From Gammaproteobacteria bacterium (GTDB lineage Bacteria > Pseudomonadota > Gammaproteobacteria > SZUA-229), in assembly GCA_030595325.1 (NCBI GenBank), contig JAUVDN010000001.1, positions 2,493 to 66,492 on the forward strand: DNA of 64,000 nucleotides, read 5' to 3'. The translations under genes were made by a program, and so were the position numbers. Position 1 is the first letter of the stretch, and each line of letters begins with the position of its first letter. Under the pieces are notes generated by a model. The model did no database searches and was not told the origin of the DNA. It saw nothing but the letters and a program-made list of their open reading frames with translations. Shown one piece after another: positions 17,844 through 37,204 of this stretch.

Positions 17844-18296
17844 ATGAAAAACATCATCACACTATTTATATTATTGATTTCAAGTTATAGCCATATCAGC
17901 TTCGCCAATGAAGCCGACTCAACAACGGTTAGGTTTACCGTAGAAAATGCCTGGATAGCAGAAGCACCTCCCGTTAGTAAAGTAATGGTCGCCTATCTAA
18001 CAATCAACAACCAAAGCAACCAAGCCATAACTATCGTTAAAGCTGAATCTGATCTTTATAGCAGTATCGAATTTCACGAGACCGTACATGAGAATGGCTT
18101 AGCCCGAATGGTTCGTTATAGCGAACTGCTCGTGCCTGCAAACGACAACCTTGAATTAAAACGTGGCGGTAAACATTTAATGCTATTTAATCCGACAAAA
18201 CGTTTGAAGATCGGTGACACTGTAACTATTAGATTAACCACCGCTGACGACACCTTTAAGATAATTTCAGTGCCAGTTAAAAAAGTACAGTATTAA
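17844..18296 (+). CDS. Periplasmic copper chaperone PCu(A)C (DUF461)
   Basis: Signal peptide plus the FHETVHENGLARM and GGKHLML His/Met motifs typical of PCuAC. Confidence 0.8.
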   Translation: MKNIITLFILLISSYSHISFANEADSTTVRFTVENAWIAEAPPVSKVMVAYLTINNQSNQAITIVKAESDLYSSIEFHETVHENGLARMVRYSELLVPANDNLELKRGGKHLMLFNPTKRLKIGDTVTIRLTTADDTFKIISVPVKKVQY

Positions 18297-19193: not shown

Positions 19194-20729
19194 TTAATTA
19201 TTTTCAGATTTTACCGGCTTTAAAGTTTCAACTTCTGCACGCTGTACAGGAGCGATACCTTCCCGCTGAGCCGCACTGCCTGATGGACTCGTGTAGCGAT
19301 CATTCATCCCCTGAATAAACTCACAGGCATCCGCTGTTACTTGCGCCAACGTTCTCTTCGAACGCATAGACCAGCCTACTGGCATCGGCCTAAAGATACT
19401 TCTTAAAGGCTGAGTGTTTTTCAGAAAAGCTTTTTTAATATCACCAGCAAGCAATTTACCTTCGCGGTGCTCGCCAGCCAGATTTTTATCGATGATGACA
19501 TTTTCAGTAATATTTCTGGCAACTATTCTTGCCGAAAAAGCACGTGCGGTAAAATGAACTACTGAAAAACTGGTAAGAACTATACCCAGTTTTATCGAGG
19601 ATACGATTCCAGCATTAGTGAAATCATAAGAAAACAATGCCCAGGAATCAAACCACTGCCCAAACACCATCATTATTATGACAAAGATACCGATTGCAAC
19701 AGCATCAAGAGTTAGCACCATCTTTAACCATTTATTCATCGCTTCTTTAACGACGGGAATAATATGGCTTTCAATATCATTAGCAATCGTCTGTAAGGCG
19801 CCCACAATACGGTAAGATCGCTCTACTTCAACTTGGTGAATACGTTCAAATATCGCTGCTTTATCTTGTGCACATTTACTTTCAAAGCGTTTACGCACGG
19901 CTTCGTCTTCGATAGGAACAGCAAGATCGTTGTTATATATAGAATAGAAACGCCCCGCAGTTAAACCTTTTGCAGCAAGTGCACGTTGCCAAGCTGCAAC
20001 CACGTCTTCAGGGTTGTCTTCCTGCGCTGCAGTATCTATCTGGTTAAGAATATACAGAAATTTTTCTGAGTCACTACGGTTAATGGTGTGACCAACCAGA
20101 TGATCCAGCGTATCTTGCATCGCACCCGGCTCAGGATGTCTGGCATCAAAAAACACCAGCACCAGATCCGACAGGTCAACAATATGATCGGTTAAACGTA
20201 ATATTGCATTGCGTTGTTCGTCAGCATCAAACCCAGGTGAGTCGATAATAATCTTTCCACTCAGTTTATCCGAGTGAGAAGTTTTCATCTGCAGATAAGC
20301 ATCTATGCGCCTGCCTTCACCATTTGTTACCTTATCGATCTCATCGCTCATCTGATAAAACGGAAAACGTGGATCAGCATTTAATGCGATGCCTGGTAAG
20401 ACACGATTATCTTTGCTGTTGCTATAGGTAATAACAGTAAACTTATCATCAACCGCCTGGTTACCAGTAAGCTGTAATTTATTACCAAGAAAATTATTAA
20501 TAAATGATGACTTACCCGCTGAGAATGTTCCCAGAACAGAGACTAATGGCCACCATGGAATATTTGTTGCATACGATTCACTGGTATCCAGCAAACCCAT
20601 TTTATATGCGACAGTGTCTAGCTTTTTAAAACGAGAAACCACGTCAAGCAACAACGGATTCTCATTATTTAAATGCGTTTCCAGTTTCGTTAATCGATCA
20701 CGAATTGATTTATCTGGGCGATTCAACAT
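19194..20729 (-). CDS. Membrane-anchored dynamin-like GTPase
   Basis: G1 P-loop GTFSAGKSSF, G3 DSPGFD and G4-like NQID. Two hydrophobic segments in the C-terminal third (LTLDAVAIGIFVIIMMVFGQWF and IVSSIKLGIVLTSFSVVHF). Confidence 0.65.
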   Translation of the reverse strand: MLNRPDKSIRDRLTKLETHLNNENPLLLDVVSRFKKLDTVAYKMGLLDTSESYATNIPWWPLVSVLGTFSAGKSSFINNFLGNKLQLTGNQAVDDKFTVITYSNSKDNRVLPGIALNADPRFPFYQMSDEIDKVTNGEGRRIDAYLQMKTSHSDKLSGKIIIDSPGFDADEQRNAILRLTDHIVDLSDLVLVFFDARHPEPGAMQDTLDHLVGHTINRSDSEKFLYILNQIDTAAQEDNPEDVVAAWQRALAAKGLTAGRFYSIYNNDLAVPIEDEAVRKRFESKCAQDKAAIFERIHQVEVERSYRIVGALQTIANDIESHIIPVVKEAMNKWLKMVLTLDAVAIGIFVIIMMVFGQWFDSWALFSYDFTNAGIVSSIKLGIVLTSFSVVHFTARAFSARIVARNITENVIIDKNLAGEHREGKLLAGDIKKAFLKNTQPLRSIFRPMPVGWSMRSKRTLAQVTADACEFIQGMNDRYTSPSGSAAQREGIAPVQRAEVETLKPVKSENN

Positions 20730-20735
20730 AACTGA

Positions 20736-21791
20736 TTATTTAGCTTTATCCGACACTGTCGCTGTTGGCTTTTTTACAGCAAACGGGCTTGTGCCTGGCA
20801 TATTGACTTCCGTTTTAATATTTTCAGCTTTTACGGCATCAACTTTTATATTTTCCTTTGGAACAACGAGTGGCACAGCGTGTTTTACCGGCATCACTCT
20901 TGCTGGTTGATATGGACGTGCATAAGTATTACGTTGCTGCTGAGGGTTGTTATATGAAGGCCAGGTCTTAGGTGCAGTCATCGTTGGCGGAACATTTGAA
21001 CTGGAGCTAAATGGCATCATATCGTTCATCATGCCAAATGGTCCACTGGAAACGGTTCGATTCATACCGTGCATATCACGCTGCATACCGTAAACAGAAC
21101 GATTCATACTGCCGATATTGTGCGTCATGCTCTGTATGTTATTGCTCATCGGTGTTAACGCATCCATCTGCGTTGACATGGAACCAATTTCAGTTGTCAT
21201 GCCATCAATATTGCCTGTCATATTATCGATACTGCCCGTCATGCTACCTAAATCTTTGGTCATGCGTGGCATTGCATCAGAAACGATTACCGCCATACGG
21301 GTAACCGACTGAGACAGAGTAGAAATATCATGCGTCAATCGATAGATCAAAAAGAAACCGTAACCAGCTAATAACACAAACGCAAACAATGACGGGTAAA
21401 CCACCATCTCCCAACGTCGCGCACTGCTATCAAACGTATTAGCTAATCTTTCTAACGGATCAGTTGGTTTATCACTAACATAAGCCTTATCCAGTATCTT
21501 TTGCTGTGCACGTTGTTTTGCTTCATGAGCGCGTGCTTTTAGATCATCAGAACTTGATTTAGATTTAGATTTGATGGCATTATCAGCCGCCGCCTTATCT
21601 ACTGCACTTATTTTTTTTGCAGCTGACTTCATGTCAGAATCTTTGTTCGCACCCGCCTTGGCAGTAGCGGCAGAACCTTTAATAACTGGTTTCGCTGTAC
21701 TTGCCTTCTCTATACTGGGCTTAGCTGAACTAGCCTTCTTAGCTGTCGCTTTGTCTTTTAACGTACTATCAGTTTTTTTATCTTCAGCCAT
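20736..21791 (-). CDS. Bitopic membrane protein: Lys/Ala-rich N-terminus, one TM, Met-heptad repeat region, Pro/Asn/Tyr-rich C-terminus
   Basis: aa 1-105 are rich in K, A and S (AKKASSAKP..., KAGANK...). The TM is at aa 128-150. aa 174-260 hold about 9 heptads of the form M-[TS]-x-x-I-[DG]-x. Only a 6-nt gap separates it from the downstream GTPase gene. Confidence 0.6.
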   Translation of the reverse strand: MAEDKKTDSTLKDKATAKKASSAKPSIEKASTAKPVIKGSAATAKAGANKDSDMKSAAKKISAVDKAAADNAIKSKSKSSSDDLKARAHEAKQRAQQKILDKAYVSDKPTDPLERLANTFDSSARRWEMVVYPSLFAFVLLAGYGFFLIYRLTHDISTLSQSVTRMAVIVSDAMPRMTKDLGSMTGSIDNMTGNIDGMTTEIGSMSTQMDALTPMSNNIQSMTHNIGSMNRSVYGMQRDMHGMNRTVSSGPFGMMNDMMPFSSSSNVPPTMTAPKTWPSYNNPQQQRNTYARPYQPARVMPVKHAVPLVVPKENIKVDAVKAENIKTEVNMPGTSPFAVKKPTATVSDKAK

Positions 21792-21792
21792 C

Positions 21793-22383
21793 TTAAAAAT
21801 CGCCCTCAGCGCCTCGATTCATAATCTCTAATATAATTTTCTTAACACCCATTGCTTCTTCTTTTAAAGCTGGCGGCAATGGTTTTCCACCATAAATCAT
21901 GGCATCCATGTTTAATGAGTATAGCCACAATTTACCTTCTTTATCCTCAACCAGACTGATACGGCACGGTAAATAGGCTGAAAATGCGTCACTGTAATCA
22001 AGCATCTGTGCCGCAGTTAACGCATTACAGAACATATATATCTTGAAGAATCGTGACTCTTCGCCATTCATTGCTGTAACTTGATCAGACAGAGGAAGCT
22101 CACCAACATTTTTAATGTTAAGTTCATTTGCAACTGCTTTGATAGTTTCATCCACATCTTCAACGGTCAGATCTTCTTCGACCGGAATCTTCCATACGGT
22201 TGCTTCAGCAGCATTACCGGTTTCGAGAAGTGTTGTTATCATGTCGCCATAAACATCGATCGCTTTTTCATCAAACTCTTCAAAAGCCTCCATCATAGGC
22301 GCAACTTTCACTGCCGCATAAATTGCGATAACAACAACAGCAAAGCCGATGAGCGCAAATAAATTACGTAACGCATAAAACAT
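21793..22383 (-). CDS. Membrane-anchored DUF302 domain protein
   Basis: N-terminal TM (LFALIGFAVVVIAIYAAV). DUF302-like core FKIYMFCNALTAAQML...LPCRISLVEDKEGKLWLYSLN. Its stop codon ends 1 nt before the next start. Confidence 0.7.
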   Translation of the reverse strand: MFYALRNLFALIGFAVVVIAIYAAVKVAPMMEAFEEFDEKAIDVYGDMITTLLETGNAAEATVWKIPVEEDLTVEDVDETIKAVANELNIKNVGELPLSDQVTAMNGEESRFFKIYMFCNALTAAQMLDYSDAFSAYLPCRISLVEDKEGKLWLYSLNMDAMIYGGKPLPPALKEEAMGVKKIILEIMNRGAEGDF

Positions 22384-22459
22384 ATAAATACCTCAAAATA
22401 ATCTCAAAAAATGATCCCATAGTTGCATTCAGCAAACCGCGACCCAAAATGACAATAGG

Positions 22460-23302
22460 CTACGATACCGTTGAATCAATCAACGTCTGCAATTCACTTG
22501 CTTTCGTGCTATCCAATTGTCGCAACAAGCCCATCAATGTACGGGCTCGTTGTATCTGTCCTTTACGTACTAAAATAGAAGCTGCTTCAAAATAAGCAGA
22601 GGCAGCTTGCTGTTTTTTTCCTTGATTAAAATATACATTGCCTAATTCACCGTAAGCATCATAGTTATCCGTCGTGTTATCAATAACATTTTGGTAACTC
22701 TGTTCTGACAAATCATACTTTCGTTGAAAAAAAGACTTCCTTGCGGTAATCCAACTGCCTCGAACCGCATCTTTTTCCATCGACTGACCAACCACTCGAC
22801 CATGCTTATCTACATTTTCTAATTTCTGCTCTACGTCAGCAGTAATGAATGTGTCCTGAGAGGCTTGACCTGTTACTGAATTGACAGTAGCTGGCTGTGG
22901 CTTGGCTGGCTGTGGTTTGGCTAGCGGAGGCGCAACAGTAAAGCTTGATTCATTTGCAGCTACTTGTCTCTGCCTATTTGGCAATGGCTGTGTACTGTTC
23001 TGTGGGGGGGTGACCGCTACATTTTCCTTAGCCACATTAGTCTCATCTACTGCATCTGCAAGCTCAGCTAACGGTGGCGCAACCTCTCTATTTTGAGTAT
23101 CCGCTGACAGTTTTGCCTGCTTTGCTTTTACCGCAGCAATAAACTCTTCAACCTCAACAAATTCATCTGAGAGATATGCCAGCGCTTTGCCTGCAGGTGT
23201 ATCATCACCCGCCAGATTACCCCAGAACATATACCCGTATATCACCGTCACAACTAACAGGATAAGAAAAATATGACTTAGGAACCATCGAATAATTTTC
23301 AT
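22460..23302 (-). CDS. Membrane-anchored protein with Pro-rich linker and C-terminal TPR-like repeat
   Basis: N-terminal TM (IFLILLVVTVIYGYMFW), a KPQPAKPQPA linker, and a C-terminal YDAYGELGNVYFNQGKKQQAASAYFEAA TPR-like helix pair. Confidence 0.55.
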   Translation of the reverse strand: MKIIRWFLSHIFLILLVVTVIYGYMFWGNLAGDDTPAGKALAYLSDEFVEVEEFIAAVKAKQAKLSADTQNREVAPPLAELADAVDETNVAKENVAVTPPQNSTQPLPNRQRQVAANESSFTVAPPLAKPQPAKPQPATVNSVTGQASQDTFITADVEQKLENVDKHGRVVGQSMEKDAVRGSWITARKSFFQRKYDLSEQSYQNVIDNTTDNYDAYGELGNVYFNQGKKQQAASAYFEAASILVRKGQIQRARTLMGLLRQLDSTKASELQTLIDSTVS

Positions 23303-23357
23303 ATAAACCTCTGTACCAACTTAACCTTTAAAAACAGCTTTGAACAAACCACTTAAT

Positions 23358-23981
23358 TTAGTCTAATATCGCTGCCAGCTTTTTCATTTCTTTTGATGCT
23401 TTACCCATCGGATCCAGCTCAAACACACCCAGACCTTCACTGAACGAACGACGATATGCAGTCCGCTGATAGAGACGAATATCAATCGCTTTTATTCCTT
23501 GCAGCATCTGTATCGCTTGCTCTGCCTCATCCGTTTCACGCACGCCCACATGGGTATCCGCTCGATTAATAAAACCTAATACTTCCGTTTTAGCATTTTT
23601 ATTATCAGCCACTATTTTCAAGAATCGTTGCGTCGACCAGATATCGGCCTGACTTGGCAGCACAGGGATAAGAATGCGACCTGCTAATGAAATCGCTTTT
23701 TCCATCGCCGGCATGTTACTGGCGCTCATATCAACGATAATAGGCTGCTTGTTTTTTTTATCACCAGCCAGTTTTTCTAACTCAGCTAAATCAGTAGAAA
23801 CTTCAAATGTTGGCTCAAAGCCATCTTCTTCGCGCACTTCACATACATCAACCAGTGTACATTGAGGGTCCAGATCAAATGCCATAACCCCTGCTTTATC
23901 ATGTGCCAACCAGACCGCTAGATTAAACGCAACTGTACTTTTACCTGTACCACCCTTTAAATTCCCAACGACTGTTAACAT
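23358..23981 (-). CDS. ParA/MinD-family ATPase (orphan, no ParB nearby)
   Basis: Deviant Walker A GNLKGGTGKST at the N-terminus. 207 aa. The DLDPQ motif is typical of small ParA-like proteins. Confidence 0.85.
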   Translation of the reverse strand: MLTVVGNLKGGTGKSTVAFNLAVWLAHDKAGVMAFDLDPQCTLVDVCEVREEDGFEPTFEVSTDLAELEKLAGDKKNKQPIIVDMSASNMPAMEKAISLAGRILIPVLPSQADIWSTQRFLKIVADNKNAKTEVLGFINRADTHVGVRETDEAEQAIQMLQGIKAIDIRLYQRTAYRRSFSEGLGVFELDPMGKASKEMKKLAAILD

Positions 23982-24063
23982 AAATGCATCCGATTATTAT
24001 TAGTGATTATAATTGTTATTTATATCAATATGTTATGACTTATATCAAGCAAAGCAGAGGTTA

Positions 24064-24867
24064 TTATTTACCTGCCATTGCTTCTGTGTTTATTTCTGTT
24101 TTAGTATTTTTTACAGCTTTTTGCGCAACCTTTAACGATGCATCAAATAGCTTATAATCCTTTGGTATAACAAACAGCTTTTTACTGACTTTACCAACCG
24201 TTATATTTCTCAGCTCATCAACAACATTATCTTTATATTGCTGCTTCACCACGATATCCAGCTTGTTGTCATACCACTGTACACCCTGCTGCTGCTCACC
24301 CGATCCGCTGAATGCAACCATGGTAAGTTTTCTGACCTTACGGTCATTCATTATTTGATCATCCTTAATTTCAACACTTAAACCCGTACCATCCGAGTTC
24401 TCCTGACGAAGTATATTTTTATACTTTACATCTATCCATTGAAATATATGAAAATCGTGACCTTCATTATTAAGTGTAATCAGCCATTTTTCTACATCTC
24501 GGTCATCAATCTTGGCTTTTTTAAGAAACATGCATTCAGCACCAGCAAACTGCTTACATGGGTCCGTATTCTTTTTACGTTTTTTACCTGTGATTACTTT
24601 TTCATCTGCAGGCATATCACGTTCAAGAAAAAATTTATTCTCGCTATCTAACCATATAATCTTATTATTCTTGTTATCAAAGATTTGCACCATAGGCACG
24701 CCATCTTCAGTATATTCAAAACGTACATTGCCATCTAGCCAAAACATCTTTGCATGGCTGACACTTTCGCCACGAATCTGTACCGCATCAGCGGTAAAAG
24801 ACTGCGCTTGCAATAAAGCTGAGTAGGATAAACAGACCAGAAAAAATAGATTTATTATAAATTTCAT
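24064..24867 (-). CDS. Secreted hypothetical protein
   Basis: Clear signal peptide MKFIINLFFLVCLSYSALLQAQS. The mature part looks predominantly beta-strand and Lys/Asp-rich. No motif recognised. Confidence 0.6.
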   Translation of the reverse strand: MKFIINLFFLVCLSYSALLQAQSFTADAVQIRGESVSHAKMFWLDGNVRFEYTEDGVPMVQIFDNKNNKIIWLDSENKFFLERDMPADEKVITGKKRKKNTDPCKQFAGAECMFLKKAKIDDRDVEKWLITLNNEGHDFHIFQWIDVKYKNILRQENSDGTGLSVEIKDDQIMNDRKVRKLTMVAFSGSGEQQQGVQWYDNKLDIVVKQQYKDNVVDELRNITVGKVSKKLFVIPKDYKLFDASLKVAQKAVKNTKTEINTEAMAGK

Positions 24868-24877
24868 AATAGTTTAA

Positions 24878-24908
24878 ACAGAAAAAGCGGTGCCACTCTG
24901 GCACCGCT
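24878..24908 (-). terminator. Rho-independent terminator after the Sgp-like gene
   Basis: Perfect 10-bp GC-rich stem AGCGGTGCCA / TGGCACCGCT with a 3-nt loop. On the minus strand it is followed by TTTTTCTGTTT. Confidence 0.75.
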
Positions 24909-24922
24909 CAATCAAATGCTGC

Positions 24923-25393
24923 TTACTGTGCCGGTGCTGCCTGCGGTGCAGACTGTGCAGGTGGCTGACCATAAGGACCAGGACCATAAGGCTGCTGACC
25001 ATAAGGACCAGGACCACGGTAACCAGGGCCTGGGCCATAATTAGGACGACCATAGTTCTGGTTGCCACCAGAATAACCATTATTCCAGGCATTACTGTTG
25101 TTCCAGTCGTTGTTTCCATAATAAGAGTTGTTGCCACGGCCCCTACCGCTGCCTTTACCTTGCATACTCATATTAAAGTTACCGTCAAATTCGCCCGAAC
25201 CATCGCCCGTGCCATCACCGTAACCGCTATTATCCCAGTTGTTGTTCCAATTGTTGTTGCCATTGCCCCAACCACTGTTACTATTATTGTTATTGTTATC
25301 CCAAGGACCACCCCAACCAGCATTTGCTGTCATTGAAGCCAGACCAAGCGTTAAGGCGGAAGATATTACTGCCAGTTTGATTATTGATTTCAT
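24923..25393 (-). CDS. Small secreted Gly/Asn/Trp/Tyr-rich repetitive protein, sulfur-globule-protein (Sgp)-like
   Basis: Start chosen at the ATG at 25393, which has GAGGA about 9 nt upstream. Signal peptide MKSIIKLAVISSALTLGLASMTANA. The mature part reads GWGGPWDNNNNN..GWGNGNNNW..GDGTGDGSGEFDGNFNMSMQGKGSGRGRG...GPGPGYRGPGPYGQQPYGPGPYG. Antisense and alternative-frame ORFs here are low-complexity shadows. Confidence 0.6.
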   Translation of the reverse strand: MKSIIKLAVISSALTLGLASMTANAGWGGPWDNNNNNSNSGWGNGNNNWNNNWDNSGYGDGTGDGSGEFDGNFNMSMQGKGSGRGRGNNSYYGNNDWNNSNAWNNGYSGGNQNYGRPNYGPGPGYRGPGPYGQQPYGPGPYGQPPAQSAPQAAPAQ

Positions 25394-25551
25394 ACGACTA
25401 TTCCTCATTACTTCCCTCATTAAAATGCGGCATTGAATCGAGGGATGCACCCAATACCTGGATTATTGTGAAGCCATCAATTGTAAAGCTAGTAACTTTT
25501 CAGTGGTGAACTACACACTATACCCTTGTTAATAGCTGGAATCTATTTCAT

Positions 25552-26313
25552 TTATAAGTTTCCATTAGGTCCGAAACTAAATGGATTGAAGACATTATTC
25601 GGCAATGGATTAAGCCTATCATTCAGCCTTCTATTTTCATCCGTTCCACCTTGATTACCCATAAAAGGCTGAACATGAATCGGCGGCAAACCACCTACTG
25701 CCGCATCTGGCATCCAGGGAAATGAACCGCCACGTTGCAATAAATCTGAACCATTACCCCACGGTGAAACCGAAGGCACATCAATCATTGGATTTGAATA
25801 GCCTCCCTGATTCGGCATGTTGTACATCGGCGGAGCATAAATAGACGGACCCGTCGCGCCAGGAACCGATAAACCATATACAGGCGGCGCAGGTAGGGTC
25901 TGAGCTGGCAAGTTTTGTACCGGCAAGTCCTGAACTGGTCTGCGCTGCTGTGGAGCCATACCGTACGAACCCCTATTTATCAGCCTATCGCCAGGCAGGC
26001 GTTGATACATCATTTGCTGCTGTTTTAATGATTCAAGAATTTCTGGTGTAACAAAGCGAGAGCCCTGGTGCTGTTGAGGTCGACCCTGCTGGCCACGGAA
26101 TAATTGGAATTTAGATTGCTCATCTACCTGGGGTAACGCCCAAGGATTAGAACGGCTATCTATTAACTGAAAGGAATAGTCAGGTATTTGCTGAGATATC
26201 ACTTTATCACCAGCAAAGGCAGCAGGCGCAAAAGCCAGCAGAAGGCTATACATTAAGCCACCCGTAACTTTGTTTATATGGTTGCGATACTGCATTAAAC
26301 ATACCCTAAACAT
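25552..26313 (-). CDS. Secreted Pro/Gln/Met/Gly-rich low-complexity protein
   Basis: Signal-like MYSLLLAFAPAAFAG; the start may be an internal Met near 26295 or 26253. The mature part is rich in P, Q, M, N and G, with motifs such as PVQDLPVQNLPAQTLPAPP and FNPFSFGPNGNL. Confidence 0.55.
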   Translation of the reverse strand: MFRVCLMQYRNHINKVTGGLMYSLLLAFAPAAFAGDKVISQQIPDYSFQLIDSRSNPWALPQVDEQSKFQLFRGQQGRPQQHQGSRFVTPEILESLKQQQMMYQRLPGDRLINRGSYGMAPQQRRPVQDLPVQNLPAQTLPAPPVYGLSVPGATGPSIYAPPMYNMPNQGGYSNPMIDVPSVSPWGNGSDLLQRGGSFPWMPDAAVGGLPPIHVQPFMGNQGGTDENRRLNDRLNPLPNNVFNPFSFGPNGNL

Positions 26314-26406
26314 CTACTCACAAATACAGTTGAAAATTCTTTACTTCATACATTTTCAAATTTAATAATCAAACAGCATAACGTATCTGCTAATCAGGCT
26401 TTCAAG

Positions 26407-27138
26407 TTAATTAGAGCCTGATTGATTATAACGCGGATTTTGAGCACGGTGAGGTGGTTGGGCTGGTCGTGCGATTTTATTGTTACTTGAATTTGGTCGA
26501 TAAGATGGCCCATTGTAATGAGGACCAGCTGGCGTGTAACCCATGGATGGCGTCCAACGTGAGCCGTTCATGTTCATAGCCGGCGCATTATATGCATTTG
26601 GCATGTAACCACCGGGGTGTTGCCGCCCAGTATAATTACCCATCACCTGACGCTGACCGGCATTAGCTGGAGCTTGCTGGCGTTTTGCTCGAGGAGGTGC
26701 CATATGCGTCATCGGTTGTGACGGTGCATAACGATAACCGCTTTCTGGCATCCAGCGGTTTGTATTATTACCACGTAAATTATTAGGCCAGGGAATATCT
26801 GGGCTAAACATATCCATAGGCACAAATGATGGATCATGCCGATACACAGGCTTATTGAAATTATGGCCAAAAGAAGGGCCTTTTACAGAGTAATCACTTA
26901 ACGCCGATGACATATACGGACCAGGCGGTGGTGGCGGAATAATTTCTTTTTTTACTTGATGTCGCTGTGTCCGTTGCGGATAACTACGCCCTGCTTCACT
27001 GCCCGGTTGCTGACCAGTATTAGCTGTATTCGCATCCGTTGCTTTTACAGATTCCGCCTGTAACAACGCAGGTAACAGTAGCAGAACCACTGGTAGGCAT
27101 AAATTTCTCAAACTTTTTGAACCATCGTTAAAATACAT
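26407..27138 (-). CDS. Secreted Pro/Asn/Tyr/Met/Arg-rich low-complexity protein
   Basis: Signal peptide LCLPVVLLLLPALLQAES. The mature part is rich in P, N, Y, M, G and R. The start lies only 12 nt after the RND stop codon. Confidence 0.55.
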   Translation of the reverse strand: MYFNDGSKSLRNLCLPVVLLLLPALLQAESVKATDANTANTGQQPGSEAGRSYPQRTQRHQVKKEIIPPPPPGPYMSSALSDYSVKGPSFGHNFNKPVYRHDPSFVPMDMFSPDIPWPNNLRGNNTNRWMPESGYRYAPSQPMTHMAPPRAKRQQAPANAGQRQVMGNYTGRQHPGGYMPNAYNAPAMNMNGSRWTPSMGYTPAGPHYNGPSYRPNSSNNKIARPAQPPHRAQNPRYNQSGSN

Positions 27139-27150
27139 TAATCGTTCCTT

Positions 27151-30100
27151 TTAGTTGCCACCATCATCCTTAAGCCGAATACCGCGACGGCCACCCGGTG
27201 ATGATTTTTTAGATGGCGCCTTTTTCACAGGGGCTTTCTTAGCCACTACCTTCTTGGCCACTGTTTTCTTGGCGGCTACTTTCTTTTTCGGCGCTGCTTT
27301 TTTAGTCACCGTAGATTTTTTTTCTGTAGGTGCCTTTTTAGCTGTAGGTGCCTTTTTAGTCTCGGCCTTCGTTTCAGGCTTCGTTTCAGGCTTCTTCTCA
27401 GCTGCTGGTGCGGCCTTAGGTGCAGGCGATGGTGCAGGCGGTGTTGATGGTGCAGGCGGCGGTGTTGATGGCGGCGCTGCTGGAGGTGGTGATGATTTTG
27501 GCATAATCATGCCTATCAACATACGCAGGATATTAAATACCATCTGGAAGATGACAACTATCCAGCCAACCAGACCGACGATACCACCGTAGATTCGCAT
27601 CCATAATGGTGTTTTATATTCATCAACTTCGGGTTCAGCATCGATCATTTCGTTACCGCTTCCATCAGCGCAGGCAACATTACAGTTCGGGAATGCTTTT
27701 CTGGCAGAAATACAACCTAAAGGAATAACGAACAAAGTCAGCACAGTAGAAACCACCACACCAAACAACAGTGAAATAGCCATACCTTCAAAGATGGGGT
27801 CACTCAAGATAACACTCGAGCCACCAACCAATGCCAATGCGGTAATGACGATTGGGCGGGTACGTGCCTGACAAGAGTTGATCACCGCATCCATTACCGG
27901 CACACCACGCTCTACTTCTTGTTTGGTGAAATCCACCAATAGTATCGAGTTCCTGACGATAATCCCGGCGAGAGCAATCCAGCCGATCATCGAGGTCGCG
28001 GTGAATTCTGCATCGAAGAACCAGTGACCTGGAATAATACCGACCAGCGTCAAGGGGATAGGTGCCATGATAATCGATGGGAAAATAAAGTTTTTAAACT
28101 CGATTACCACCAACATGTAGATCATGATCATCGCCAGCATGAAAGCACCGCCCATGTCACGGAAGGTCTCATAAGTAACTGTCCACTCACCGGTCCATTC
28201 AAACCCGGTTTCAGAACTGTTTGCAGGCGGACCAAAGTATCCACCACCGATAAAGCCGTGAGCAACGGTGACGCCGTCAGGTGACACATAATCTTCCAGC
28301 ATTTCATCGACCTGGAACATGCCATAAATAGGCGCAGCTAACTCACCGGCATTTTCACCAGTAACGAACTCTACTTCACGTAAATCTTTATGGTAGATAA
28401 TATCTTCTTCAACATCCTTTACAAATCGACCCAGCTCCGACAATGGCAACATCGAACCATCCGGTGCCTGCACAGGAATTGATCCCAACCGTGAGAACTC
28501 TGAACGCGCTGATAGCGGTACTTGTAAGATAATGTACGTTGGATCGACAACAGAGCCACGCTTCAAATCACCTACAACAAAGCCACCCATCGCCATCTCA
28601 AGCGTCGTGTTTATCGCATCAATGGTGATACCTTTACGCAACGCCTTATCGCGGTCAGCTTTGAAACGCCAGATTTCATATGGCTGCTGCATCAGATTAT
28701 CAACATCAGTGATACTGTCTGCCGCTTCAAACATTTTGGTCATATCACGCGCAAACTGTTGCCTTGTTTCCTGATCTGGACCATAGATTTCAGCAACTAC
28801 CGACTGCAATACCGGTGGACCTGGTGGCATTTCAACAACCTGTATACGGGCACCTACTTTTTTAGCTATTGGCGTCATTATTTCGCGCATAGCGACAGCA
28901 ATTTCATGACTGGTGGTCTCTCGCGCTGACTTATGTGTCAACACGACTTGCATATCTGCCTGCCATGGTTTTGTTCTTAAATAATAATGACGAACCAAAC
29001 CATTGAAGTTATACGGTGAAGAAGTACCAATATATGTCTGCAATGAGATAACTTCTTCAAATTGTCTGGCCTCGTCAGCAAATGTCGCCATCAGGTTTGC
29101 AGTATCGATTAATGACGTGCCTTCCGGGAAATTAACCACGATATCAAACTCAGACTTATTATCCAATGGCAGCATTTTCACCGAGACAGCCGTGGTATAA
29201 AACATCACACAACAAGCAAAGAAAACGACAAACAGTGACATCAGGAAGCCATAACCCAAAACGCTGTTTTCTATTAGAGGCGTGATTGTGTTACGGAAAA
29301 AACGTCCGAGTCTAGCGTTACCGGCTTCTTCCTTTTCAGCATGATGCTTCAAATTTGCCATCGATGGCTTTATCTTATTAGCAAGCCATGGGGTAAACGC
29401 AAAAGCAGCAAATAAAGAGAAGATCATCGCTACCGAACCCAAAGTCGGAATTGGCGCCATATAAGGCCCCATCATGCCACGCACCACGCCCATAGGCATC
29501 AGTGCAGCAATAACGGTAAAAGTCGCAAGAATAGTCGGGTTACCGACCTCATCTACCGCTTGGATAGACACTTCTTCACTCATATCTTCTTTCATCAGCC
29601 AGTGTCGATAAATATTCTCAATCACCACGATGGCATCGTCTACCAAGATACCGATAGAGAAAATCAACGCAAACAGGCTGACACGATCAATGGTCAGACC
29701 CAGCACCAATGCACTGAACACAGTGAATAGGATAACGATAGGGATGACGATTAGCACCACCAGCGCAGGACGCCAGCCCAGTGCAAACCAGACCAATGCA
29801 GTCACGATTGCTGTAGCGATAAACAGCTTAAAGATTAATTCATTAACCTTGTCATTGGCGGTTTCACCATAGTTACGCGAGACGTAGACGTTGACATTGC
29901 CTGGAATAATTTCACCTTTTAACAGCTCCAGACGCTCAAGAATATTCTCGTAAACGGAAACACCGTTTGAACCTTTTTTCTTGGCGATAGCGATAGTGAC
30001 CGCTGGTGCACCGTCAGCAACTTCAGTTTCAGCGCTAGCCGGACCAGTATAATGATTAACAATGCTGTGCACTTCAGATGGGCCATGCAACACATTGGCA

Positions 30101-30927
30101 ACATCACGAATATACACAGGTATGCCATTAGACAGACCGACAACAATATTCTCTACATCCTGCGCTGATTGCAAAAATGAACCCGTGTAAACCTTGAAAC
30201 TTTTATCCCAGGCTTCGATATCACCAACAGATTTCTCACTGTTTGCCTGCTGTATCACCTGCGCCAGTTTGGGCAAGCTAATACCATAACCAGATAATTT
30301 CTCTGGCAGAACTTCAACACGTAACTGTTCAGTACGGCCACTAACAACAAAGCCCTGATTTGAGTTTTCTACTTCACTTAGTTTTTGCAGAGTATCTAAA
30401 GCAATTAGTCGTATCGATGCATCATCAACTTCATTAGACCATAAGGTGATAGTCAGCCCCGGTACATCATCAACCGCTTTTGGCTTAACCATATAACCAG
30501 CCACACCTGGTGGCATAACGTCTTTATTTGAATCCAGCTTACTGTAGAGCTTGGTCAGCGAATCCTCCATCTCTTCACCGACATCAAATTCGACGGTAAC
30601 AATGGCATTGTCACGCTGCGATGCAGCGTACACATGTTTAACACCGGACATTTCACCCATGATTCGCTGCAACGGTTTAGCTGCGAGCGCGGCAACCTGC
30701 TCTGCAGAAGCACCCGGGTAATTAACAAAAATATCAGCCATAGGCACCGATATCTGAGGATCTTCCTGTCTCGGTGTAAAGGCAATACCGGTTAATCCCA
30801 TCAAAATAAAGATGATGATTAACATCGGTGTTAAAGGTGAGTTAATAAATGCCTTGGCAGTTGCGCCAGCAAGACCCAGGCTCTCATTTGCTGTTTCCAG
30901 CTTATTCGTTTCGTTATTATCTGACAT
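27151..30927 (-). CDS. RND-superfamily efflux permease (HAE-like proton relay) with extra C-terminal hydrophobic segment and 116-aa Pro/Ala/Lys tail
   Basis: AcrB-type architecture. The TM4 motif SIGILVDDAIVVIEN has an Asp-Asp pair. At 1258 aa it is about 200 aa longer than typical RND pumps. Confidence 0.9.
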   Translation of the reverse strand: MSDNNETNKLETANESLGLAGATAKAFINSPLTPMLIIIFILMGLTGIAFTPRQEDPQISVPMADIFVNYPGASAEQVAALAAKPLQRIMGEMSGVKHVYAASQRDNAIVTVEFDVGEEMEDSLTKLYSKLDSNKDVMPPGVAGYMVKPKAVDDVPGLTITLWSNEVDDASIRLIALDTLQKLSEVENSNQGFVVSGRTEQLRVEVLPEKLSGYGISLPKLAQVIQQANSEKSVGDIEAWDKSFKVYTGSFLQSAQDVENIVVGLSNGIPVYIRDVANVLHGPSEVHSIVNHYTGPASAETEVADGAPAVTIAIAKKKGSNGVSVYENILERLELLKGEIIPGNVNVYVSRNYGETANDKVNELIFKLFIATAIVTALVWFALGWRPALVVLIVIPIVILFTVFSALVLGLTIDRVSLFALIFSIGILVDDAIVVIENIYRHWLMKEDMSEEVSIQAVDEVGNPTILATFTVIAALMPMGVVRGMMGPYMAPIPTLGSVAMIFSLFAAFAFTPWLANKIKPSMANLKHHAEKEEAGNARLGRFFRNTITPLIENSVLGYGFLMSLFVVFFACCVMFYTTAVSVKMLPLDNKSEFDIVVNFPEGTSLIDTANLMATFADEARQFEEVISLQTYIGTSSPYNFNGLVRHYYLRTKPWQADMQVVLTHKSARETTSHEIAVAMREIMTPIAKKVGARIQVVEMPPGPPVLQSVVAEIYGPDQETRQQFARDMTKMFEAADSITDVDNLMQQPYEIWRFKADRDKALRKGITIDAINTTLEMAMGGFVVGDLKRGSVVDPTYIILQVPLSARSEFSRLGSIPVQAPDGSMLPLSELGRFVKDVEEDIIYHKDLREVEFVTGENAGELAAPIYGMFQVDEMLEDYVSPDGVTVAHGFIGGGYFGPPANSSETGFEWTGEWTVTYETFRDMGGAFMLAMIMIYMLVVIEFKNFIFPSIIMAPIPLTLVGIIPGHWFFDAEFTATSMIGWIALAGIIVRNSILLVDFTKQEVERGVPVMDAVINSCQARTRPIVITALALVGGSSVILSDPIFEGMAISLLFGVVVSTVLTLFVIPLGCISARKAFPNCNVACADGSGNEMIDAEPEVDEYKTPLWMRIYGGIVGLVGWIVVIFQMVFNILRMLIGMIMPKSSPPPAAPPSTPPPAPSTPPAPSPAPKAAPAAEKKPETKPETKAETKKAPTAKKAPTEKKSTVTKKAAPKKKVAAKKTVAKKVVAKKAPVKKAPSKKSSPGGRRGIRLKDDGGN

Positions 30928-31036
30928 GAGGACTACTTAATTATTCTCTAAGATTCAACCCTGTTCGCAATGATGCTACGAACACCTCCCAAACATTTGC
31001 CAGGCATAATCACCAGCAAATGACATTATTACTGTG

Positions 31037-32179
31037 CTAGTTACGCCCACGAACCAGTATTTTTTCACCTGGCCTCAGACCAGACAAAATAGTTACTGAA
31101 TCTTCATCGACGACTTCACCGATACGCACTAAGCGCATCTTAGGTTTATTATTTTCATCCAAAACTTGCACAGACGGTAAACTGCCTTTTTTATGAATCG
31201 CTGCAATTGGAACTACAGGTAGCGCACGACTTGGTGACCCCACATCAGGAATCATTATTTCTGCGTACATACCAGGACCACCCGGTACACCTTCTGGCAA
31301 ATCAAACTTAACGGTTACGGTATGCTGTTTACTGTCTGCTACAGGAGATATCTGAGCAACGCGTGCATTAATTAGCGTGTTACCTACATCAAGGCGCGCT
31401 GGAACGACCATACCTTTTTTCAGCCCCGGCATTAAACGCGCTGGAACTTCTGCTTGAATACGCAGGAATTTAGAATATGAAAAGATGATTAATGGCTGAC
31501 CCGGTTGAACGGTATCACCTATTTCAACCATCTTTTTCATGATAATACCATCAAACGGTGCGATTGCTTTGGTATCACGCAACTTGGCATTGATGGCACG
31601 CAAACCTGATTCGGCTTCGGTGACGTGTGAACGAGCTGAGGCAACTTGTGTACCCTGTGTAACTAAATCGGCATGACGCTCGATACTCTTATTGCCGCCG
31701 CTGCTGCCCGGCATCATATCGTTGTTTTCAAAAAAACCATCAAACATCGAAGGCATACCCATGCCAGCCATCGGACGAGGATTATATACACGAGGATTCC
31801 ACAACTCACGATTATACTGAACCTGTGCATTTTGCATTGCATTCTGTGCAGAATTCAGTTTTGCTTCGACAGCTGATTTCTTGGCCTGCAGATCATCATC
31901 ATTGATCTGCACAAGATTCGTTCCAGCACTAAACTCATCGCCTTCTTCACCGGCAATACTGATAACACGTCCTGGCATCTGTGCTGCTAGCGTTACTTCT
32001 TTAAGCGGGATAACACTACCGCCTAAGATAACTGCACCGCCATGAGAAGCAACACCAACTGTAATAACAGTATCTGCCTGCACTTGTGCAGACCAACCCG
32101 TAAGCAGCGTTAGCGAGAGATAAAAGGGAAATTTCATACGACTAATTATTGACATGCCCAAAGCTACCTTCATGTTCAT
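31037..32179 (-). CDS. RND periplasmic adaptor (membrane fusion protein, HlyD family) with Met-rich insert
   Basis: N-terminal signal/anchor, a lipoyl-like segment, coiled-coil segments (LQAKKSAVEAKLNSAQNAMQNAQ ... ARSHVTEAESGLRAINAKL), and the typical C-terminal V..G......V.ILSGL.PGEKILV. Confidence 0.85.
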   Translation of the reverse strand: MNMKVALGMSIISRMKFPFYLSLTLLTGWSAQVQADTVITVGVASHGGAVILGGSVIPLKEVTLAAQMPGRVISIAGEEGDEFSAGTNLVQINDDDLQAKKSAVEAKLNSAQNAMQNAQVQYNRELWNPRVYNPRPMAGMGMPSMFDGFFENNDMMPGSSGGNKSIERHADLVTQGTQVASARSHVTEAESGLRAINAKLRDTKAIAPFDGIIMKKMVEIGDTVQPGQPLIIFSYSKFLRIQAEVPARLMPGLKKGMVVPARLDVGNTLINARVAQISPVADSKQHTVTVKFDLPEGVPGGPGMYAEIMIPDVGSPSRALPVVPIAAIHKKGSLPSVQVLDENNKPKMRLVRIGEVVDEDSVTILSGLRPGEKILVRGRN

Positions 32180-35368: not shown

Positions 35369-37204
35369 ATGAAATTAAATATACCAGAACAACATAGTCC
35401 CTCAGCGGGCGCAACGCCCAGCCACCCTCGTAAGCTGAAGAAGGTACTCGCCGCCCTGCCCAACGCAAACATGGGCGAATTAACCAAACAAACGTTCCTC
35501 ATATTGCGCGACTTAAATCGACAGGAGATGCCCAACAAACATCGTCTGGAAAATATGGAAATGCTACGCGTTATGACGCGAGGTATATTTAATAATCTTA
35601 AAAAATATTTCATAAACCGTACCCTGCCATTACCGGATAAAAGTCAAAAAATCGTCAACCTGAATCAGTCCCTGTTACAGGAGTTAGTCCATGGTTACGA
35701 AATCATCGCTTACGAAGCTGCCAATAATATCGACACCAAGATTGATGATAAAACGCTAAGCACAGCTATCTGCCGGGCAATAAATTATCTCGCTGAAATG
35801 TTATTACGCGCCTGCGAAGTTTATGAGCCCTGCCCTAAAAATTTATGGAATGACGTACATGAGCTCTATGCTTTTGCCGAAAGCAGAGGCCTGACTGAAA
35901 CGGTCATACACGGCGGTGATAAAAAGCAAAACAAATCAACCATAGAAAACAGTTACAAACAAATTTTATTATTTTCTCTTGCCAGGCCAATCGCGCTAAG
36001 ACAACGTGATAGTGAGCGTGTATTTAACGAACTATTCGACTGGGCAAAGTATTCAATCATCAAACGTGACGCCTCAGAAAAACAGGTAGATCAAGTTTTC
36101 AGCATGCATATACACAAAGATTTGCCGCCCAACTATTTATCCAAACAAGATTTTGACAATGGCGCCATCATCCGGATTCTGGATGCGGGCAATCTGGTTA
36201 CACACATAACAGGAATAATAGAAGAACGCAGCGGCAAAAAAGAGAAGCTTGCTCTAGGTGATGAGATTCCCACAGAAACACTAATTACACTCGTTAACTC
36301 ATGGGGAGATAGTGCTAAACGTCGGTTCTCACGCGCAGACAGACAGGGTCACATCAGTGTCGCTATCGGTTTAGCAAACTCATCAAAAGCGATTAGCGGA
36401 TCACTTACAAGGGAACCAGAAATCAATGCAGGCTCGGGGTTTATTCGTACCGCAGCATCGCGCAACCAGGACCCGAGCTTCACGCTGGAATCTATAAATC
36501 GAGGTGAAGACTCTGACTTCCAGGGATATATGACGCACACCGAGGTTGGCTCAGAAGATAATAATTCCTGGGACATGGTGGCAAAGGGTCGCGCACTAAC
36601 AGAGACTTATACTAACGAACAAAAACACGTCAATGAAGACGATGTAAATCAACGACGACAAAAAGCTGATTCACATTGGGAGATTGTCAACATAAGTGCT
36701 GGCGGATATTGCTTGCGCTGGAACTCCGATGACACATCAAAAGCGCAGATTGGCGAATTGATTGCGCTACGGGAGCCTGGCTCTAATAATACTTTTGAGT
36801 GGCGCATCGGAGTAATTCGCTGGATGCAGTTTACTCAGGAGAATGGATTAGAAATTGGCGTTCAGGTAATATCACCTAAAGTCGTTGCCGCAACTGCGCT
36901 ACGCCACAACCGACCAAATGAAGCACCATTTGAATGTTTGATGCTTCCGGGAATAAAAGCATTAAAACAAGCACCAAGCATATTATTACCTTCCCATGCG
37001 TTCAAATCAGCTGATAAACTTATCGTTAGCATATTAGAAAGCAAGCTTAATGTAACCTTAGCTGAAACTAAAGAACACACCGGTTCTTTTACTCAGTTTA
37101 TCTATAAAAATTCTGACGTTGATAAGCGCATTAAAAAACAGGTCAAAAAAGAAGAGGCGAGTAAACATAAAGATGACTTTGATGAATTATGGACGTCATT
37201 ATAA
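35369..37204 (+). CDS. Large PilZ-like domain protein of unknown function
   Basis: 611 aa. The C-terminal region holds QRRQKAD...VNISAGGYCLRW. This resembles the PilZ RxxxR...(D/N)xSxxG signature, but the first half is only partly conserved. Sits directly upstream of the FimX-like gene. Confidence 0.55.
   Translation: MKLNIPEQHSPSAGATPSHPRKLKKVLAALPNANMGELTKQTFLILRDLNRQEMPNKHRLENMEMLRVMTRGIFNNLKKYFINRTLPLPDKSQKIVNLNQSLLQELVHGYEIIAYEAANNIDTKIDDKTLSTAICRAINYLAEMLLRACEVYEPCPKNLWNDVHELYAFAESRGLTETVIHGGDKKQNKSTIENSYKQILLFSLARPIALRQRDSERVFNELFDWAKYSIIKRDASEKQVDQVFSMHIHKDLPPNYLSKQDFDNGAIIRILDAGNLVTHITGIIEERSGKKEKLALGDEIPTETLITLVNSWGDSAKRRFSRADRQGHISVAIGLANSSKAISGSLTREPEINAGSGFIRTAASRNQDPSFTLESINRGEDSDFQGYMTHTEVGSEDNNSWDMVAKGRALTETYTNEQKHVNEDDVNQRRQKADSHWEIVNISAGGYCLRWNSDDTSKAQIGELIALREPGSNNTFEWRIGVIRWMQFTQENGLEIGVQVISPKVVAATALRHNRPNEAPFECLMLPGIKALKQAPSILLPSHAFKSADKLIVSILESKLNVTLAETKEHTGSFTQFIYKNSDVDKRIKKQVKKEEASKHKDDFDELWTSL

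Follow-up and report, generated by a model that had tools for sequence, protein, structure and literature searches.

To our knowledge, the machinery described so far for periplasmic sulfur globules consists of the Sgp coat proteins only, and mutation of a single sgp gene has mild consequences. In published descriptions each known sgp gene forms its own transcription unit, and none has been reported to be linked to a gene for a ParA, dynamin, DUF302 or LolA-like protein. In Allochromatium vinosum, sgpD, which encodes the globule protein of highest abundance, has a promoter and a terminator to itself and adjoins the gene for a resistance-nodulation-division (RND)-type exporter of hydrophobes or amphiphiles (PMC10386293). 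Here we describe a cluster of eleven co-directional genes on the minus strand (positions 19194-32179) of a 64,000-nucleotide stretch of DNA from a member of the Gammaproteobacteria (contig JAUVDN010000001.1; the whole stretch is referred to below as the window). In this cluster an sgp gene stands together with genes for an RND pump and its adaptor, a ParA-like ATPase, a dynamin-like protein and several other envelope proteins. From sequence comparison, we consider it somewhat probable that the cluster is a conserved and hitherto undescribed module that spans the envelope of sulfur-storing Gammaproteobacteria and is devoted to their periplasmic sulfur globules; no published description of it was found in the literature searched.

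In its general make-up the cluster resembles magnetosome and other organelle islands (mam/mms), which likewise hold a dedicated set of matrix or coat proteins, a transporter, a tetratricopeptide repeat (TPR) scaffold and a positioning NTPase. The two share no homologous genes, however; the inclusion here would be periplasmic, and the actin-like MamK of the islands contrasts with ParA plus dynamin in the cluster. The genes, in transcription order, and the features within and between them are as follows.

31037..32179 (-): G1, RND periplasmic adaptor (membrane fusion protein, MFP), 380 aa; TIGR01730 163.3 bits, cut-off 94.9
31706..31765, approximate (-): Met-rich insert at the tip of the MFP alpha-hairpin, GMGMPSMFDGFFENNDMMPG; consensus GGMGMPNLFDQMFT
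27151..30927 (-): G2, HAE1-type RND permease with a C-terminal extension, 1258 aa; ACR_tran E 3e-133
27154..27498 (-): disordered pump tail of ~115 aa, Lys/Pro/Ala-rich, net charge +24, following the extra hydrophobic segment
27169..27189 (-): RRGIRLK motif near the pump C-terminus, from the orthologue alignment
26407..27138 (-): G3, secreted low-complexity protein with the motif PPPPGPYMSS, from motif comparison
25552..26313 (-): G4, secreted low-complexity protein, Gln/Pro/Gly/Met-rich, with a signal peptide
24923..25393 (-): G5, sulfur globule protein of the SGP family, 156 aa, from the ATG at 25393; its open reading frame (ORF) reaches a GTG at 25450
24885..24909 (-): intrinsic terminator between G5 and G6, an 11-bp stem with 7 G-C pairs, then a T run
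24064..24867 (-): G6, secreted protein with a conserved Cys pair and a probable LolA/DUF4412-like fold, from family profile matches
23358..23981 (-): G7, orphan small ParA/ParF-type ATPase, 207 aa; CbiA, MipZ and AAA_31 matches
22460..23302 (-): G8, N-terminal transmembrane (TM) anchor, low-complexity linker and C-terminal TPR repeats; TPR_17 24.7 bits, cut-off 24.4
21793..22383 (-): G9, N-terminally anchored DUF302 protein, 196 aa; DUF302 44.7 bits, cut-off 23
20736..21791 (-): G10, bitopic protein with a Lys/Ala-rich N-terminus, one TM segment and Met-rich heptads, from the family alignment
19194..20729 (-): G11, membrane-anchored bacterial dynamin-like protein, 511 aa; Dynamin_N 56.7 bits, cut-off 27

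The ORF listing of the window bears out the eleven minus-strand genes with gaps of 158 nt or less that had been named in a preliminary description of this DNA: the intergenic gaps are, in transcription order, 109, 12, 93, 158, 55, 82, 55, 76, 1 and 6 nt, where the 158-nt gap presumes that G5 starts at the ATG at 25393 (a start at the upstream GTG would make it 101 nt). The terminator reported after the Sgp-like gene is likewise real, and a terminator of its own is a trait that G5 shares with sgpD, as is the nearness of an RND-type exporter gene (PMC10386293). As a working model, this terminator would set the pump and coat genes (G1-G5) apart from a second unit (G6-G11) that serves for tethering, positioning and remodelling.

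The "Sgp-like" gene of the preliminary description, G5, is placed in the SGP family, mainly by way of its orthologues. Its low complexity left the homologue search with a single match, which carries the Pfam family PF17228, "Sulphur globule protein". The gathering score of this profile is 26.7 bits; the window G5 alone scores 11.3 bits (E 0.65), spanning profile positions 2-92, a low value that is due to dilution of the match by Asn-rich insertions. Locus L078 has at the G5 position an orthologue that scores 47.8 bits. Ten more orthologues at this position were scored: seven are at or above the gathering score (L098 50.3, L042 49.4, L024 38.7, L027 36.7, L012 34.2, L018 33.2 and L108 27.1), and three lie at 21.0-26.5; L012 is from the window's own clade. 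Against a hidden Markov model (HMM) of two Pfam-positive SGPs, G5 scores 42.5 bits, compared with a mean of -22.7 and a maximum of -3.7 for 1000 composition-preserving shuffles; the match is not a composition artefact. The ATG at 25393 is preceded by a GAGGA ribosome-binding site, and the protein reads as a Sec signal peptide, MKSIIKLAVISSALTLGLASMTANA, followed by a Gly/Asn/Tyr/Trp-rich region. Sec signal peptides and Gly/Tyr/Asn-rich repetitive sequence are features that the G5 family shares with SgpA-D of A. vinosum, besides the match to the SGP profile. SGP-family genes occur just upstream of G6 or the ParA gene in at least four separate clades of clusters.

The other two secreted low-complexity proteins, G3 and G4, match no known Sgp family, and profile searches with G4 gave no family match of any kind; positional orthologues of G4 in close relatives are 33-38% identical. 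G3 carries a motif of its own. The pattern P[PA][PNA]xGPY (PPPxGPY) was found in 24 loci and, among the 81 sequences compared, only in the ORF directly after the RND gene, which often overlaps the pump stop codon; it recurs in 7 further metagenome loci. Long antisense ORFs run over G5 (24890-25336, plus strand) and over the pump tail (27155-27592, plus strand); they are by-products of low-complexity coding on the opposite strand, not genes. A further kind of low-complexity secreted protein, with aromatic-Arg-Pro repeats (YRFRP, KWRP, FRPD) and neither an SGP nor a PPPxGPY signature, is found in Sedimenticola, Thiodiazotropha and Chromatiaceae clusters (L035 1562-3531, L023 1289-3665, L077 1952-2740 and L069 1571-2545, all minus strand). 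It is plausible that the periplasmic TPR protein binds these repeats.

As a unit, the cluster is conserved. Two related contigs are syntenic with the window over its entire length, flanks included, with identities of 81-85% for the dynamin, ParA and DUF302 proteins, 70% for G6, 64% for G10, ~54-55% for the TPR protein, 52-76% for the pump and ~35% for G3 and G4; for G5, BLAST aligned the signal peptide only. A profile scan with one genome per species gave at least 593 genomes with a relative of the dynamin, of which the best 80 were analysed. In 57 of these 80 species loci two or more other cluster families lie beside the dynamin gene; in 8 the dynamin gene is alone, with a full view on both sides, and in the remaining 15 the contigs are too short for the neighbourhood to be judged. 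The genes occur in two orders. In one they are colinear, the order seen in the window; in the other the dynamin and MFP genes diverge. A metagenome scan added dozens more contigs with both arrangements. The same gene set in dozens of genomes and two arrangements is clustering far beyond chance. Since the genes flanking the cluster differ completely between lineages, the linkage is selected for rather than merely inherited.

The same data bear on the proposal that the locus is two or more unrelated operons (pump and coat on the one hand, ParA-TPR-DUF302-dynamin on the other) that lie side by side by shared ancestry and have no joint function. The terminator between G5 and G6 would suit such a proposal, as would the occurrence of the dynamin gene alone in several lineages and the finding that the TPR, DUF302, G6 and Met-heptad proteins are each absent from some clusters. 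Yet the linkage survives inversion of the dynamin gene and full replacement of the flanks, across families whose dynamins are only ~50-55% identical, and the pump tail and ParA, which belong to different halves of the cluster, are lost together (see below). We judge separate operons to be quite improbable.

Named hosts of the cluster are Thiotrichaceae, Sedimenticola/Sedimenticolaceae, Candidatus Thiodiazotropha, Chromatiaceae/Chromatiales, Thiohalobacter and Thiohalomonadaceae, almost all of them sulfur-oxidising and mostly globule-storing Gammaproteobacteria. The dynamin without the cluster was found in Magnetococcales, in metagenome-assembled genomes (MAGs) labelled Ectothiorhodospiraceae and in one Desulfobacteraceae MAG. 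A lack of synteny in relatives, or a wide spread among organisms that make no inclusions, had been named beforehand as grounds for giving up the globule proposal. Synteny is present, and the cluster was not seen in non-sulfur organisms, the Methylococcales having only a lone, degenerate relative of the dynamin. The proposed link to globules is in keeping with this host range and with the adjacency of sgpD to an exporter gene, which had been noted independently (PMC10386293). Taken generally, a connection between the cluster and sulfur globules seems to us slightly better than an even proposition.

In Sedimenticola and Thiodiazotropha clusters, where the dynamin and MFP genes diverge, the gene of a 131-aa cytoplasmic protein family ("f9"), conserved at 72-92%, stands between them (for example L035 9164-9559, minus strand, with equivalents in L021-L084); L055 and L063 have it on the upstream side of the MFP gene. 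The window contains no f9 gene, and the family gave no match in Pfam.

G1 and G2 are, as first described, an MFP adaptor followed by an oversized RND protein. They resemble the HAE1 tripartite pumps (AcrAB-TolC, MexJK, TriABC) in forming an adaptor-permease pair, in the ACR_tran architecture and in the TM4 Asp-Asp pair, the proton-relay motif VDDAIVV of G2 being intact on direct reading of the sequence. G1 also matches HlyD_3 and HlyD_D23, and an MFP gene is kept beside the RND gene in 36 loci. The pumps nearest to G2 among solved structures are MexK, MdtB and TriC (~190-198 bits). G2 scores 393 bits against multidrug HAE1 models and 209 against the CusA/CzcA model; because the NCBIfam equivalog cut-off is not reached (393 versus 1250), it is placed in a divergent HAE1 subfamily.

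The pair departs from the tripartite pumps in several respects. Canonical RND adaptors contact TolC through the hairpin tip. The adaptor here has a Met-rich insert at this tip, and the sequence QYNRELWSP...GGMGMPNLFDQMFT is kept in 35 of 35 aligned adaptor orthologues, from Thiotrichaceae to Chromatiaceae. The secreted low-complexity proteins are obligate neighbours, and there is no linked gene for an outer-membrane factor (TolC/OEP). The preliminary description had remarked on this absence in the cluster, and it extends to the window flanks; such a gene is possible elsewhere in the genome, and its absence is weak evidence, because TolC genes are often unlinked. Finally, the permease is ~190 aa longer than solved RND pumps, whose alignments to it stop near residue 1070.

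The Met-rich segments of G1, G3, G4 and G10 would be expected of a system for periplasmic copper or silver. Here Cu(I) or Ag(I) would be held by the tip insert, by the Met-heptad protein and by those low-complexity proteins that contain Met and His, and would leave by way of the pump. A PCuAC/LpqE-like gene nearby (17844-18296; assigned from the Pfam call on the L001 orthologue) would fit the same scheme. This neighbour is flank-specific to one lineage, however, the pump scores nearly twice as high with multidrug HAE1 models as with CusA/CzcA and has MexK, MdtB and TriC as its nearest solved relatives, the cluster includes an SGP-family gene, and its host range tracks sulfur oxidisers rather than metal resistance. 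We hold metal handling to be very improbable.

A more serious alternative is that the cluster is a specialised RND efflux or envelope-stress system that expels toxic hydrophobic or reactive sulfur compounds (polysulfides, organosulfur) or other amphiphiles. The dynamin would then repair the membrane and ParA would place the pump, while the sgp and other low-complexity genes would be neighbours through shared sulfide regulation and not parts of one machine. The pump is a typical HAE1-type RND protein with its proton relay intact, TolC is commonly encoded elsewhere (a TolC-family gene stands beside the lone dynamin gene in several genomes), and the terminator separates G1-G5 from G6-G11, all of which an efflux system would accommodate. 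It accounts less well for the low-complexity gene after the pump, with its cluster-specific motif and its frequent overlap with the pump stop codon, for the recurrence of SGP genes within the cluster in separate clades, and for the way in which the LolA-like, TPR, DUF302 and Met-heptad proteins have been kept together with the pump when the genes were rearranged. On balance, efflux as the whole explanation appears unlikely.

The C-terminal extension, ~190 aa or more, sets the permease apart from the tripartite pumps. Its three parts are a hydrophobic segment (~30-35 aa), a disordered tail (110-370 aa) in which Lys, Ala, Pro and Ser are abundant, and the RRGIRLK motif a few residues from the end. 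An RRGIRLK-type motif was found in 38 of 39 tailed RND proteins aligned (the window and 38 genome orthologues; in two it reads RRGIQLK), and RRGI[RQ]LK in 28 of 28 metagenome matches. The tail gives weak histone-H1-like NCBIfam matches. Between TM12 and the tail, residues ~1070-1143 of G2 (window ~27499-27720) form an acidic linker and then the hydrophobic segment, which has a conserved central Arg. In many orthologues the linker holds a Cys pair (FPNCNVAC in the window; the same region of RND orthologues in L005-L084). The side of the membrane on which the tail lies depends on whether the segment crosses as one TM helix or turns back as a re-entrant hairpin; the latter, and with it a cytoplasmic tail, is favoured by the segment's length, by the central Arg and by the positive-inside rule.

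The gene for a possible partner of this tail lies in the other half of the cluster. G7 has a deviant Walker A P-loop, read as GNLKGGTGKST, and the solved structures closest to it are those of ParF/ParA from plasmid TP228, which are ATPases activated by a flexible basic partner peptide; orthologues in close relatives are 82-89% identical. Profile searches detected no ParB- or ParG-like gene in the cluster, and G7 scores 126 bits against ParA_partition (NF041546), whose cut-off is 180. For both reasons G7 is an orphan and not a plasmid or chromosome partition ParA, in agreement with its first description. ParA-type ATPases position diverse cargo, as in the McdAB carboxysome system, the ParC/PpfA chemoreceptor array systems and ParF-ParG of plasmids, and the cluster is comparable to these in that a ParF-like ATPase is encoded beside its presumed cargo and beside a candidate partner that has a long disordered basic region and a short conserved Arg-rich end peptide. 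It differs in having no ParB, ParG or McdB-like gene; instead, the part of adaptor is predicted to fall to the tail of an integral-membrane RND pump, and the cargo would be situated beyond the inner membrane.

The distribution of the tail is consistent with this proposal. The Thiohalobacter-type loci L024 (2000-5362) and L042 (1355-4717) encode pumps of 1120 aa with neither the tail nor RRGIRLK. Both clusters lack ParA and keep the MFP, low-complexity/SGP, TPR, Met-heptad and dynamin genes, G6 being clear only in L024. These are the only intact tail-less pumps, and they stand in the only complete clusters without ParA; once ORF-calling artefacts had been corrected, there was no tailed pump without ParA and no intact tail-less pump with it. 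ParG/ParB and McdB engage their ParA partners through a flexible basic tether that ends in an Arg-rich peptide. By this analogy, and because of its co-loss with ParA, the pump tail is proposed as the ParA adaptor, a candidate partner of G7.

The remaining proteins of the second unit are secreted or membrane-anchored. In the G6 family, 13 of 18 members match DUF4412 (best E 6.2e-8), 2 LolA_like and 3 MucB_RseB; the window protein itself scores 15 bits against a cut-off of 21.6. Members of the LolA-like clan carry hydrophobic ligands. C104 and C112 are invariant in the family alignment, and a single-sequence AlphaFold2 (AF2) model of G6 (pLDDT 38.7) was too poor for use. Searches of PDB sequences with G6 and G9 gave no match. 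The anchored TPR-like protein of the preliminary description, G8, stands as to its repeats mainly through its family: the window protein barely exceeds the TPR_17 cut-off, while an orthologue scores 32.8 bits with TPR_19, and G8 is kept in 34 loci. G9 proved to be the DUF302 protein it had been called (44.5 bits in an orthologue; 73-86% identity and conserved length in close relatives). DUF302 genes are also found inside the sox clusters of sulfur oxidisers without SoxCD (PMC5037610). For G10, the Met heptads noted at first are family-wide, whereas the Lys/Ala-rich N-terminus of ~120 aa is limited to the window's Thiotrichaceae-like clade; elsewhere the protein has 147-214 aa (L032-L083), with a core of a juxtamembrane SARRWE, one TM segment and Met heptads, and 6-12% Met. 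A short G10 orthologue has a weak DUF948 match. Because of its restriction to one clade, the histone-like tail of G10 is taken as a lineage-specific addition, unlike the universal tail of the pump.

The last gene, G11, encodes a membrane-anchored dynamin-like protein, as had been suggested. It has the P-loop GTFSAGKS, a DSPG motif and two hydrophobic segments within residues ~335-400, starting at ~335 and ~375. Its G4 motif is NQID (~residues 228-231, within LNQID) rather than N/TKxD, here and in most of the family, and may signal altered nucleotide specificity, as in the EHD ATPases. An AF2 model built on a 24-sequence alignment (pLDDT 65.6, pTM 0.62) retrieved, in a Foldseek search, BDLP (2j69, E 4.8e-7), the Campylobacter DLP pair (5owv), EHD2 (4cid), IniA (6j72) and SynDLP, with TM-scores of 0.2-0.33 that are low partly because the molecules are elongated. 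G11 thus shares Dynamin_N, a helical stalk and a hydrophobic hairpin with the bacterial dynamins (Nostoc BDLP, Campylobacter DLP1/2, Bacillus subtilis DynA, Mycobacterium smegmatis IniA) and the EHD ATPases. It differs in being shorter, in being encoded by a single gene rather than a pair, in its G4 motif, in its genomic context and in its very high conservation, the best 120 database matches being 77-93% identical. DynA and IniA have been linked to membrane repair and stress, and the match of the G11 fold to IniA is a point in favour of the efflux system considered above.

The dynamin could also suggest an anti-phage defence island of the dynamin/LeoA type, and in PADLOC G11 has a marginal match to LeoA (E 5e-4, 17 bits). 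We rejected this candidate: PADLOC gave no significant matches, the other marginal one being PDC-M28B at 18 bits, and the locus is chromosomal, lies among housekeeping genes in stable synteny without mobility genes, and has a uniform composition across the region. A defence role is effectively refuted.

The cluster is restricted to the main dynamin clade, since no cluster members lie near the genes of the P0131 clade or of the Methylococcales clade. At the lone-dynamin loci L030, L038, L043, L057 and L076 the order glnD-moaC-dynamin-tolC recurs; here tolC was confirmed as an OEP-family gene by Pfam, and glnD and moaC were assigned by eye. The Methylococcales relatives (Methylobacter/Methylococcales, L085 10001-11479 and L086 10001-11446) are ~30% identical, have the degenerate P-loops GGNSTAKS and GSPTSGKA and lie between genes for a small lipoprotein and a small polytopic membrane protein. 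Their neighbourhood contains no pump, ParA or DUF302 gene. This relative may be a pseudo-GTPase with a different role. A small gene beside it was considered as an f9 homologue and rejected, a homology test showing no relationship.

Returning to a module dedicated to sulfur globules, a mechanism can be outlined in which the role of every gene is read from its sequence family. The Sec-exported proteins G3, G4 and G5 would form or seed the globule coat. The pump and adaptor could shuttle a sulfur species that is hydrophobic or amphiphilic between the globule and either the inner membrane or the periplasm, the Met-rich hairpin tip of the adaptor contacting the globule instead of, or besides, TolC. 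The LolA-like G6 and the membrane-anchored G8-G10 might tether or service the globule at the inner membrane. The ParF-type G7 would distribute sites by way of the RRGIRLK peptide on the flexible basic tail of the pump, a contact modelled on the ParG/ParB and McdB peptides that act on ParA partners, and the membrane-anchored G11 could remodel or repair the inner membrane around a growing or shrinking globule. In full, this would be a new organelle-biogenesis machine for a periplasmic inclusion, in which the pump docks on the globule, a ParF-like ATPase spaces the sites and a dynamin shapes the membrane. We offer this complete positioning and remodelling scheme tentatively and think it doubtful as a whole, its chances being clearly lower than those of the general link to globules.

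Several observations weigh against a globule module or against parts of this scheme. The case is built on sequence comparison. Globule formation is undocumented for the window's lineage, no sulfur-metabolism genes, including sox and dsr, are found in the window, and the taxon labels of the MAGs are those of their submitters. No SGP gene could be detected in the Sedimenticola and Thiodiazotropha clusters, whose low-complexity proteins are of another kind, with repeats of the YRFRP type, and sgpD itself is dispensable in A. vinosum (PMC10386293). The dynamin family is wider than the cluster, occurring alone in some Gammaproteobacteria and in Magnetococcales and in degenerate form in Methylococcales. 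As to positioning, the joint loss of ParA and the pump tail may be one evolutionary event, and if the extra segment of the pump spans the membrane once, the tail is periplasmic and cannot meet ParA.

The surroundings of the cluster are as they had first been described, with housekeeping genes (psd, epmA) on either side and no mobility genes in the cluster. One flank consists of psd, the PCuAC-like gene, prmB and aroC, and the other of epmA, efp and epmB, epmA acting in the modification of elongation factor P (EF-P); the remainder of the window is made up of housekeeping genes. Base composition is even across the cluster region, and an Rfam scan of the window gave zero matches. Just past epmB, a 611-aa ORF (35369-37204, plus strand) has no Pfam or NCBIfam match.

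The nucleation, coating, enlargement, positioning and mobilisation of periplasmic sulfur globules pose a long-standing question, for which the cluster provides a concrete candidate gene set. Its hosts include chemosynthetic symbionts of lucinid clams as well as sulfur oxidisers that live free, and RRGIRLK, PPPxGPY and the adaptor insert are simple sequence markers by which the system can be recognised in other genomes. The cluster also yields testable ideas: that a ParA ATPase acts on an integral-membrane pump through a tethered C-terminal peptide, that a Met-rich RND adaptor tip docks on an inclusion and not on TolC, and that an exceptionally conserved dynamin has a cellular role here. If the proposed mechanism is true, this would be the first ParA system with its cargo across a membrane, and a bacterial dynamin would gain a defined role in the biogenesis of an inclusion.

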